Positions 14,913 to 23,200 of a DNA stretch of 64,000 nt are shown here, in pieces. A program made the position numbers and the translations under genes. Under the pieces are notes generated by a model, which searched no databases, was not told the DNA's origin, and saw only the letters and a list, made by a program, of their open reading frames with translations. How positions within the stretch are numbered: position 1 is the first letter of the stretch; every line of letters starts with the position of its first letter. The stretch is from the NCBI RefSeq assembly GCF_054482525.1, contig NZ_CM137006.1; one strand, given 5' to 3'.

Positions 14913-14992
14913 GCCACTGCTTTTCTTTGATGTCCCCATTTTGTGGAGCCCATCAACCCCGCCATTTTGGTTCAAGGTTGGTGGGTTTTTTG
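14913..14992 (+). ncRNA. rybB: RybB small RNA (sigmaE-dependent repressor of outer-membrane protein mRNAs)
   Basis: gccactgcttttctttgatgtccccattttgtggagcccatcaacc...ggttggtgggtttttt matches the RybB sequence as I recall it; 3' hairpin plus U tract; lies between ybjL and rcdA as in K-12. Confidence 0.85.
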
Positions 14993-15010
14993 TTGCCTGA
15001 AATTTATCTA

Positions 15011-20178: not shown

Positions 20179-20235
20179 TCTCTGCTAAAAAGTGTAGTAT
20201 TGAGCGGCTCGCTTCAATAACTATTCAGAGGGATT

Positions 20236-20994
20236 ATGGAAACACGTCGCGAAGAGCGTATCGGGCAGCTGCTGCAAGAATTAAAACGCAGCGATAAGTT
20301 ACATCTTAAAGACGCCGCCGCCCTGCTTGGGGTTTCGGAGATGACGATTCGTCGCGATCTGAACAACCACAGTGCGCCCGTCGTTTTGCTCGGCGGCTAT
20401 ATTGTTCTGGAACCGCGCAGCGCCAGCCATTACCTGTTAAGCGATCAAAAATCCCGCCTGGTGGAAGAAAAACGCCGGGCGGCAAAACTGGCTGCGACGC
20501 TGGTAGAACCCGATCAGACCCTCTTTTTTGACTGTGGCACCACCACGCCGTGGATTATTGAAGCGATTGATAATGAAATCCCTTTCACCGCCGTTTGTTA
20601 TTCGCTAAATACCTTTCTGGCACTGAAAGAGAAACCCCATTGCCGCGCGTTTCTTTGCGGTGGTGAATTTCACGCCAGCAACGCCATTTTCAAACCCATC
20701 GATTTTCAGCAAACGCTGAATAATTTTTGCCCGGATATCGCTTTTTATTCCGCTGCGGGCGTGCATGTCAGTAAAGGCGCTACCTGCTTTAATCTTGAAG
20801 AGTTGCCGGTAAAACACTGGGCCATGTCGATGGCGCAAAAGCATGTGCTGGTTGTCGACCACAGTAAATTTGGCAAGGTGCGTCCGGCGCGCATGGGTGA
20901 CCTGAAACGCTTTGATATTGTTGTGAGCGATTGTTGCCCGGAAGATGAGTATGTGAAGTACGCGCAGACGCAGCGTATTAAGTTGATGTATTAA
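20236..20994 (+). CDS. deoR: Deoxyribose operon repressor DeoR
   Basis: 252 aa; DeoR-type N-terminal helix-turn-helix. Confidence 0.9.
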   Translation: METRREERIGQLLQELKRSDKLHLKDAAALLGVSEMTIRRDLNNHSAPVVLLGGYIVLEPRSASHYLLSDQKSRLVEEKRRAAKLAATLVEPDQTLFFDCGTTTPWIIEAIDNEIPFTAVCYSLNTFLALKEKPHCRAFLCGGEFHASNAIFKPIDFQQTLNNFCPDIAFYSAAGVHVSKGATCFNLEELPVKHWAMSMAQKHVLVVDHSKFGKVRPARMGDLKRFDIVVSDCCPEDEYVKYAQTQRIKLMY

Positions 20995-21004
20995 CAACGA
21001 ATAA

Positions 21005-21716
21005 ATATCCTCCGGCATAGCCGGAGGTTTTTCAAATGCGCCTATAAGGCTCTCTTACCAGCCGCGCCCTAACAGGCGCACACGATCTGACATTTGCATC
21101 CAACTTCGTTACTTACGGCCCGTAAACGGGCTGCCCGGATAGGGAATCGATAACTGCTCTCCCATTTTATCCTCTTCAAGCTGGTGCTTTATGTAATCCT
21201 GTATCTTCGCCGTGTTCTTACCCACCGTATCGACGTAGTACCCTCTGCACCAGAACTCCCTGTTCCTGTATTTGAATTTCAAATCACCAAACTGCTCGTA
21301 AAGCATCAGACTGCTTTTCCCTTTCAGATATCCCATAAAGCCGGATACGCTCATTTTGGGCGGGATCTCCACAAGCATATGGATATGATCTGCACAGCAT
21401 TCAGCTTCCAGAATCCGTACACTTTTCCACTCACACAGCTTTCTCAAAATACTGCCTATTGCTCTACGCTTCTCTCTGTAGAACACCTGTCTTCGGTATT
21501 TTGGCGCAAAAACTATGTGATATTTACAGTTCCATCGGGTGTGCGCTAAGCTCTTTTCGTTCCCCATTGGGACCCCCTTTTGATTTCTTGTTTGACACTT
21601 GCAGTTGCCAGACCGCAAGGTGTTTTAACAAATCAAAAGGGGTTTTAATAACTGGCTTAAAGCTGAAAGCTTTCCGGAACCCCCAGCCTAGCTGGGGGTT
21701 TTCTGTGCACAATAAC
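21005..21716 (-). mobile_element. IS200 insertion sequence (IS200/IS605 family); ends approximate
   Basis: Encodes an IS200 TnpA; upstream of tnpA lie a perfect palindrome (aacccccagcctagctgggggtt, 21678-21699) and a second stem-loop over the ribosome-binding site; fills almost the whole deoR-dacC intergenic space. Confidence 0.8.
21109..21567 (-). CDS. tnpA: IS200 transposase TnpA (HUH/Y1 single-strand transposase)
   Basis: MGNEKSLAHTRWNCKYHIVFAPKYRR...HIHMLVEIPPK... 152 aa, intact. Confidence 0.92.
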   Translation of the reverse strand: MGNEKSLAHTRWNCKYHIVFAPKYRRQVFYREKRRAIGSILRKLCEWKSVRILEAECCADHIHMLVEIPPKMSVSGFMGYLKGKSSLMLYEQFGDLKFKYRNREFWCRGYYVDTVGKNTAKIQDYIKHQLEEDKMGEQLSIPYPGSPFTGRK

Positions 21717-21741
21717 CGGATGACGTTTCGCGCCATCCGGC
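21717..21741 (-). terminator. Likely dacC terminator hairpin
   Basis: ccggatgacgtttcgcgccatccgg stem-loop just downstream of the dacC stop, abutting the IS200 end. Confidence 0.5.
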
Positions 21742-21751
21742 TATCAGAAGA

Positions 21752-22954
21752 TTAAGAGAACCAGCTGCCGAACCACTGATGGAATTTCATCATCACGAAA
21801 TCCCACATCCGACCAAAGAATCCGCCCTCTTCCACATTTTCCATCACGATTAGCGGACGCTGCTCAATGGATTTACCGTTAAGCTGGAAATCAATGGTGC
21901 CAACAACCTGACCTTTTTTCAGCGGTGCGGTAAGCTGCGGTTCCGTTAACGTGTAGCTCGCTTTCAGGTTTTTCAGCTGCCCACGCGGTATGGTCACTGA
22001 TCCCGCTTCGCCTGCCCCGAGATTCACTTCGCTCTTATCACCAAACCAGACGCGCTGAGTCACAAAGGTGGCATCAGGTTTAATTGGCGTCACGGTTTCA
22101 AAGAAGCGGAAACCCCAGGTCAATAATTTCTCAGACTCATTAAAACGGATACGGTCAGTTTTCGCACCCAGTACTACGGAGATCAAACGCATATCGCCCT
22201 GGGTAGCCGAAGCAACCAGATTATATCCCGCGCCTGCCGTGGTTCCTGTCTTCATGCCATCAACATTCAGATTGCTGCTCCACAGCAGACGGTTACGGTT
22301 AGGCTGACGAATTTTGTTGAAGGTGAACTCTTTCTCTTTATGAATGGCATACTCTTCCGGCACATCGTGGATCAATGCTTTACCCAGCAATGCCATATCG
22401 CGCGCGGTACTGAACTGCCCCGGCGCATCCAGACCGTGCACCGTCTGGAAGGTAGTGTTGGTCAGACCCAGTTTTTTGGCATAACCATTCATCAGACCAA
22501 TAAATGACTCCTGGCTCCCGGCAACGTAATCGGCCAGCGCAATACAGGCGTCATTACCGGACTGGATAATCACACCTTTGTTCAAGTCTGCCACCGAAAC
22601 CTGATCGCCCGGTTTGAGGAACATTACCGATGAACCACGCAGTGCCGGATTTCCCGTCGCCCAGGCATCTTTACCGACCGTCACCATATCGGTGAGTTTA
22701 ATCTTATCGGCCTTAAGCGCCTGCCCAACCACATAGCTGGTCATGATTTTAGTCAGGCTCGCGGGGTCCAGTTTCTCATCCGCATTGCCTTCTGCCAGCA
22801 CTTTACCGCTGGCGTAATCCATTAAAATCCATGCACGCGCATCCACGCTCGGCGCTTCAACGGTTTGTTCCGCCGCGAATGCCGTTGGGGCAAAAAGGAA
22901 TAAAAATGCAGAACCCGCTGCAAGACCACGAAGGAGAGAGGAGTATTGCGTCAT
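21752..22954 (-). CDS. dacC: D-alanyl-D-alanine carboxypeptidase DacC (PBP6)
   Basis: 400 aa from [10 protein letters not shown]; SxxK (SLTK), SGN and KTG motifs. Confidence 0.92.
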
Positions 22955-23200
22955 AAATGCCACCCGAGTATCCATTCAAAAAAAATACGTTATATCGCCG
23001 TATGATAAGTTCGGTGATTAATAACGCACACACAAACTTAAAGAAACCGTAAGTTGGTAAAGTTTTTAAAGTTTATGCAATATCCTGCCGCTTCGCTGCT
23101 TCTGGTGTCATTTTTTTGCCAGCTGTTGCTTAAAAGTTAACTTTACTTCACCATCGGAGTCCTGTTCAGCCTGTGGCTGCCTGTCGGAAAAGGGGTGAGT

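Follow-up and report, generated by a model that had tools for sequence, protein, structure and literature searches.

In the 64,000-nucleotide stretch of DNA analyzed here (the window), the convergent genes deoR and dacC are separated by a spacer of 757 bp (positions 20995 to 21751, from the open reading frame list and the sequence), whereas the same spacer measures 46 bp in Escherichia coli K-12 MG1655, in PCN033, and in other closest relatives. Thus, 711 bp has been inserted, which raises the questions of what the insert is, where exactly it begins and ends, and how and when it arrived. A sequence-only reading had proposed an IS200 insertion in this 757-bp spacer, and the comparison with the 46-bp spacers confirmed it. 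Here, we conclude that the insert is almost certainly a complete, autonomous IS200C element (IS200 group, IS200/IS605 family) that recently transposed into the 46-bp deoR-dacC spacer. The locus is composed of the following features.

20236 to 20994, plus strand: deoR coding sequence, intact, with the stop codon at 20992 to 20994 (open reading frame list).
21000 to 21710, minus strand: IS200C, complete, 711 bp, with the left end GTGCACAGAA... at 21710 and the right end ...GGAGGATATTTATT at 21000 (empty sites, identical copies, IS1541 alignment).
21000 to 21004, minus strand: right-end terminal pentanucleotide TTATT, the putative right cleavage site, the same as the target pentanucleotide (all full copies end ...GGAGGATATTTATT).
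21711 to 21715, minus strand: target pentanucleotide TTATT, host DNA that was kept, adjoining the left end on its 5' side (PCN033 empty site, CCGG-TTATT-CGTTG; target logo of 107 sites).
21716 to 21740, minus strand: native deoR/dacC intergenic hairpin CCGGATGGCGCGAAACGTCATCCGG, a dacC terminator-like hairpin (also in empty sites; single copy per genome).
21752 to 22975, minus strand: dacC open reading frame, intact, with the annotated dacC coding sequence at 21752 to 22954 (open reading frame list and annotation of relatives).

Neither the deoR nor the dacC coding sequence is touched by the insertion, and deoR is 100% identical to deoR of PCN033, SCU-102, and 19KM1776. The left end of the element faces dacC, which lies upstream of tnpA in the same orientation. 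When the filled and empty sites were aligned, the empty site read CAACGAATAA|CCGGATGACGTTTCGCGCCATCCGGCTATCAG and the filled site read CAACG-AATAA-ATATCCTCCGG ... GTGCAC-AATAA-CCGGATG. AATAA (TTATT in the orientation of the element) stands at both junctions, which leaves the ends ambiguous by 5 nt from the deoR-dacC locus alone. In element orientation, the left junction is CCGGATGGCGCGAAACGTCATCCGG-TTATT|GTGCAC, so that, on the dacC sense strand, IS200C begins directly 3' of a TTATT preceded by the terminator-like hairpin of dacC. The comparison with the K-12 spacer that had been suggested earlier places the insertion point directly after TTATT and gives the insert as 711 bp. The interval first assigned to the insertion (21005 to 21751) was shifted, since 5 bp of the right end (21000 to 21004) fall outside it and 41 bp of native spacer (21711 to 21751) fall within it.

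To set the ends, we compared the element with further copies found by a scan of species-representative genomes for the left-end palindrome: 9 in E. coli (L003, L124-L131) and about 50 in Yersinia pestis (IS1541). The first letters of each compared copy are GTGCAC or a variant thereof, and before them stands a T-rich pentanucleotide that varies (TTTTT, TTATT, or TTGTT); the last letters are always ...GGAGGATATTTATT, whatever sequence comes next. Based on these constant termini, the element runs from 21710 to 21000 on the minus strand and is 711 bp long. No target-site duplication was found at the deoR-dacC insertion when the empty and filled sites were compared. The direct repeat of TTATT was considered as a 5-bp target duplication and rejected because every copy ends in TTATT whether its target is TTTTT, TTGTT, or TTATT; the apparent 5-nt repeat consists of the constant right-end terminus of the element and the target.

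Copies with 100% identity to the insert over nucleotides 1 to 711 are present at eight other E. coli loci (cobO, add/ydgJ, ycgB/fadR, lacZ/lacY, yfeX/yfeY, rhsC, a phage-like plasmid, and a prophage), and the flanks diverge exactly at the assigned ends. Full identity at unrelated loci excludes truncation or chimerism, and the claim that the element is intact held: it matches eight RefSeq-annotated IS200C loci throughout and has all the functional parts known for it. The name IS200C rests on the RefSeq annotation of the identical copies ("IS200/IS605-like element IS200C family transposase," WP_000526135.1), from which the window copy differs only by its location. As in other members of the IS200 group, the element encodes a Y1 HUH transposase, carries tnpA alone within about 0.7 kb, lacks terminal inverted repeats and a target duplication, has a short target at its left end, and bears regulatory RNA structures in the left end. 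The only open reading frame with family support in the 711 bp is tnpA; there is no tnpB. The ends GTGCAC... and ...ATATTTATT are unrelated, so terminal inverted repeats are absent, and the left and right ends carry different subterminal hairpins (21678 to 21700 and 21009 to 21027). No second IS200 copy was found in the 64-kb window, in which the left-end palindrome occurs once and a single RF01405 match was obtained. Within the element, the following features were assigned.

21109 to 21567, minus strand: tnpA, 152 amino acids plus stop, from ATG; Y1 HUH transposase with H61-I62-H63 and catalytic Y125 (Pfam, PDB relatives, motif positions).
21678 to 21700, minus strand: left-end perfect palindrome AACCCCCAGC-CTA-GCTGGGGGTT, with a 10-bp stem and a 3-nt loop, nucleotides 11 to 33 of the element (sequence).
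21574 to 21642, minus strand: 5' untranslated region (5'UTR) stem-loop in which the Shine-Dalgarno (SD) sequence is sequestered, nucleotides 69 to 137 of the element (RNA fold).
21572 to 21579, minus strand: SD sequence AAGGGGGT of tnpA (PMC4513863 quotes this sequence for Salmonella IS200 as well).
About 21559 to 21648, plus strand: predicted antisense small RNA (sRNA) art200/STnc490 of about 90 nt, complementary to the 5'UTR of tnpA plus its codons 1 to 3 (homology to the Salmonella mapping, PMC4513863 and PMC2515195).
21009 to 21027, minus strand: right-end subterminal hairpin CCTCCGGCTATGCCGGAGG, with an 8-bp stem, terminator-like on both strands (terminator scan, sequence).

The 152-residue TnpA matched Pfam Y1_Tnp (PF01797) end to end (E value of 4.4e-38, model positions 2 to 121 of 121), and its PDB relatives were 2ec2, the IS608 TnpA 2a6m (E value of 3.9e-19), and 2xm3 (E value of 1.9e-16). 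The HUH motif lies at residues 61 to 63 and the catalytic tyrosine at Tyr125, the residue replaced in TnpA-Y125F, the catalytically dead control of Ellis et al. (PMC4513863). By all three lines of evidence (Pfam, PDB relatives, and motif positions), TnpA is undisrupted, and the intact transposase read from the letters was borne out. The left-end palindrome had also been recognized and is indeed perfect, but it spans 21678 to 21700, one base more than first given (21678 to 21699). The window holds it a single time and none of 100 shuffles contains it; in Salmonella IS200, the corresponding palindrome is a bidirectional terminator that stops read-through into tnpA (PMC4513863). The proposed stem-loop over the ribosome-binding site was recovered at 21574 to 21642: the 127-nt leader has a minimum free energy of -42.6 kcal/mol (z = -4.4), with the SD sequence AAGGGGGU in the 3' arm of the stem-loop.

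The Rfam family RF01405 (STnc490) matches 21577 to 21700 with 146 bits (gathering score, 56). This match is on the tnpA-sense strand, and the papers on STnc490/art200 describe an RNA antisense to tnpA (PMC4513863, PMC2515195). The RF01405 model appears to represent the sense 5' leader of tnpA, and the match was taken here to mark the region of the left end and the 5'UTR, with no bearing on the strand of the sRNA. The only other Rfam family match in the 64-kb window is the RybB sRNA gene at 14916 to 14994 on the plus strand (RF00110, 104.8 bits); no tRNA genes were found in the window.

If the controls described for Salmonella IS200 operate here, tnpA would be nearly silent, with the palindrome halting read-through from dacC, the stem-loop hiding the SD sequence, and art200 blocking translation. 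Between the terminator, the SD sequestration, and art200, only minimal tnpA expression is expected. The effect on the host is likely small. The dacC gene should keep its hairpin and TTATT, and any read-through would then meet the left-end palindrome. The deoR gene would be cut off from the native hairpin and should now meet the right-end hairpin followed by TTTTT, which on the plus strand stands 14 nt past the deoR stop codon.

In the textbook rule for the IS200/IS605 family, the transposase reads hairpins in the ends of the element itself and a short target motif. The sequence-only reading had linked the insertion to a neighboring hairpin or REP-like structure and to hairpin targeting by the family. 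A native terminator-like hairpin does adjoin the insertion, but it is not a REP: REP/BIME identity of the hairpin at 21716 to 21740 was rejected because the empty-site sequence is single copy per genome. Searched with blastn at a word size of 11, the 54-nt empty site was found in 5,424 genomes, with a median of 1 place in each and never more than 2. Hairpin targeting also held in part, since left ends do follow a hairpin and TTNTT at 88% of sites; the mechanism as worded was imprecise and is not the textbook rule.

The association was assessed across 107 independent left-end flanks of IS200-group elements, 94 of which (88%) have a hairpin ending at most 9 nt before the junction. By the same test, a hairpin was found in 7 of 52 right-end flanks, in 9% of shuffled flanks, at 14% of all TTNTT sites in the window, and at 27% of the intergenic TTNTT sites there, a control set taken from a crude gene mask. 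The last five flank positions of the 107 sites are T (.97), T (.83), N (T.61), T (.99), and T (.93). The adjoining hairpin is GC-rich in these IS200-like left ends. All 9 of the other E. coli IS200C sites conform to the pattern of a hairpin and a T-rich run, as does the deoR-dacC copy (TTATT). IS200-like left ends from Yersinia, Vibrio, Brenneria, Edwardsiella, Pluralibacter, and a number of metagenome-assembled genomes (MAGs; L004-L123) nearly always adjoin the hairpin plus TTNTT. Selection alone was considered as the source of the hairpin adjacency and judged insufficient, with 27% of intergenic TTNTT sites against 88% of real junctions.

Directly 5' of the left-end hairpin, GAAAA is invariant across divergent variants, and GAAAAA stands before the right-end hairpin. 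By analogy with the pairing of guide and cleavage site in IS608, this A-run is likely a guide for the T-rich target and for the right-end TTATT. The right end itself consists of a hairpin, ATAT, and TTATT. Head-to-tail tandem copies were observed in E. coli MRSN346595 (L129) and S10EC (L131) and in Y. pestis NCTC5923 (L069, L070, L072, L116); in such IS200C/IS1541 tandems, the left end lies after the right end of the other copy, directly or 1 to 3 nt on. The composition of the right end (hairpin plus TTATT) suggests that it acts as a target mimic, which fits the head-to-tail dimers. One possible reading, which we hold only tentatively, is that the real target of the IS200 group is a GC-rich hairpin followed by TTNTT, that is, an intrinsic terminator, and not any TTNTT filtered by selection, with the right end mimicking this target (hence the dimers) and the GAAAA guide reading the T-run. 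Terminator-like sequences have been described as enriched just upstream of IS200/IS605 elements in a 2025-26 preprint (10.1101/2025.07.22.666184), the only source for an explicit statement of terminator targeting by IS200/IS1541 found in a literature search whose scope did not extend to older IS200/IS1541 papers. The hairpin association is thus not new, the strength of the preference is partly described already, and only the mechanistic reading might be new.

For the deoR-dacC copy, transposition by the single-strand "peel and paste" route of IS608 and ISDra2 can be proposed. The Y1 transposase would excise the top strand from a donor copy in the form of a single-stranded circle, which would then be pasted into single-stranded DNA of the lagging-strand template, and the T-rich target would be recognized by the conserved A-rich guide GAAAA just 5' of the left- and right-end hairpins. 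GC skew is negative on the plus strand throughout the window, and therefore the top strand of the element is the lagging-strand template. Judging from the literature on IS608 and ISDra2, this would be the orientation expected for the family. Together with the presence or absence of the insert in near-identical genomes, it lends indirect support to single-strand transposition.

With a query across both junctions, no IS was found at this site in any of 5,426 complete E. coli genomes, in agreement with the earlier description of the insertion as strain specific. An undisturbed 54-nt empty site is present in 5,420 of the 5,426, PCN033, SCU-102, and 19KM1776 among them. SCU-102 and 19KM1776 share their flanks with the window at 100.0% identity (4 kb next to deoR and 25 kb next to dacC), the bit scores implying no more than a few mismatches in these 29 kb, and the 4-kb deoR-side flank of PCN033 is 100% identical to the window. 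Because no genome has a filled site and strains with near-identical flanks (SCU-102 and 19KM1776) are empty, the insertion is, as far as these sequences tell, recent and lineage specific, in a sub-lineage outside the complete RefSeq genomes.

The element itself is common in the species. A copy covering at least 80% of IS200C is present in 2,063 of the 5,426 E. coli genomes, at up to 35 places per genome, and the closest relatives carry IS200C at 7 to 10 places, with a 100% identical copy beside cobO in both PCN033 and SCU-102. Some IS200C match was observed in 3,097 of the 5,426 genomes, about 1,000 of which thus hold only partial or diverged IS200-like sequence, and 1,287 IS200C places in the E. 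coli genome scan are on plasmids, phage-like plasmids included. No IS200 was detected at megablast sensitivity in the K-12 strains MG1655, C600, J53, ME8067, and ER1709, in which a chimeric query of K-12 flank and IS200 gave a match to the flank only; the stated absence of IS200 from K-12 was therefore upheld. Elsewhere in the neighborhood, IS1 was observed in the deoR-ybjG-mdfA stretch (window positions about 20179 to 20235) of E. coli M15, YZ22MPE6, LF4-1, RM14721, and LR-24, so the surroundings of deoR have been hit independently by different insertion sequences. The exact 22-nt IS200 left-end palindrome was also seen in MAGs of distant taxa (L004-L031, L037, L041-L044, L057-L065), namely, Bacillota, Peptococcaceae, Saccharibacteria, Mailhella/Desulfovibrio, Oxalobacter, and Elusimicrobiaceae, usually about 15 to 110 nt from a contig end. 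These could reflect a genuine wide spread of assembly-breaking IS200-like elements or binning contamination.

The same data were weighed for an older origin, in which the insertion was present in the common ancestor of the lineage and was lost from the relatives by precise excision. The family does excise precisely and restore the empty site, as established for IS608 and ISDra2 (PMC2806898), and SCU-102, 19KM1776, and PCN033 each show a perfect empty site. However, 5,420 of 5,426 genomes across the species have an intact empty site and none a filled one, a single gain is more parsimonious than repeated, independent precise losses among strains a few SNPs apart in 29 kb, and 100% identity to copies elsewhere means that the element has had no time to diverge, all of which makes an ancestral insertion very improbable. 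It is harder still to believe that an assembler misplaced a repeat copy into the spacer. IS200 is multicopy in the related genomes (7 to 10 places), and such repeats break or confuse assemblies, as the many scan matches at contig ends illustrate. Nevertheless, both junctions are base exact against the empty site, and the copy obeys the target rule of the family (hairpin plus TTATT, complete right end) as well as its orientation rule, which is not expected of a mis-join.

Retention of the copy for use by the host, instead of a neutral selfish insertion, was also considered: it might supply the 5' tnpA-derived or art200 sRNA, or its two terminators might insulate deoR from dacC. In Salmonella, a trans-acting sRNA is made by processing of the 5' leader of tnpA (PMC5435999; bioRxiv 2024.06.26.600842), read-through into IS200 left ends gives stable sRNAs (PMC2515195), and at this locus the right-end hairpin with TTTTT is a better-looking deoR terminator than the native site. 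Against this, the insertion occurs in one lineage only and so gives no sign of selection at this site, and host targets of IS200 RNAs have been shown only in Salmonella. A role in the host is therefore very unlikely, and recent transposition of IS200C into the spacer is the reading kept here.

Taken by itself, the window contains a well-understood insertion sequence in a harmless place, with little consequence. The IS200C element and its mechanism are already known, and this is an ordinary copy at a new, lineage-specific site. As had been anticipated for typing, it provides a clean marker, here of a very narrow sub-lineage within the PCN033/SCU-102/19KM1776 clone. In the laboratory, IS200 has the reputation of hardly moving (PMC4513863; bioRxiv 2024.06.26.600842). 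IS200C, often called dormant, has moved recently in E. coli, as seen from the approximately 100% identical flanks of the empty sites and the identical copies elsewhere. Wider interest is limited to how strong the preference is for sites after a terminator hairpin, as seen here and at 107 other junctions, a preference that could account for the benign nature of IS200 and its poor expression.

In layout and positions, the copy resembles the prototype IS200 of Salmonella enterica (707 bp), in which the palindrome occupies nucleotides 12 to 34 (11 to 33 here) and the stem-loop nucleotides 69 to 138 (69 to 137 here), with the same SD sequence AAGGGGGU, a single tnpA with the catalytic Y125, and an antisense art200/STnc490. 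Transcription of the Salmonella tnpA starts near nucleotide 40, and art200 is a 90-nt antisense RNA (PMC4513863; PMC2515195). In the literature, the ends are drawn differently (707 bp against 711 bp here); the present count takes in the right-end TTATT but not the target pentanucleotide. IS1541 of Y. pestis and Yersinia pseudotuberculosis aligns over nucleotides 1 to 711 at 87.5% identity and shares the same ends, the same hairpin plus TTNTT target context, and the tandem dimers. It differs in being 710 bp long, in its left end (GTGCCC instead of GTGCAC), and in its roughly 50 copies in the scanned genome.

IS608 of Helicobacter pylori and ISDra2, on which the mechanism of the family is modeled, have a homologous Y1 HUH TnpA, subterminal hairpins, and no inverted repeats; they likewise make no target duplication, insert 3' of a 4- to 5-nt motif, and have their top strand on the lagging-strand template. 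Unlike IS608 and ISDra2, the IS200C copy has no tnpB, and its target is a T-rich TTNTT beside a host hairpin, whereas theirs is TTAC or TTGAT. The pairing of guide and target is suggested for IS200 by the conserved GAAAA 5' of both hairpins. Group IIC introns also home just after intrinsic terminator hairpins, although they are retroelements with a wholly different mechanism, and the likeness is one of analogy only.
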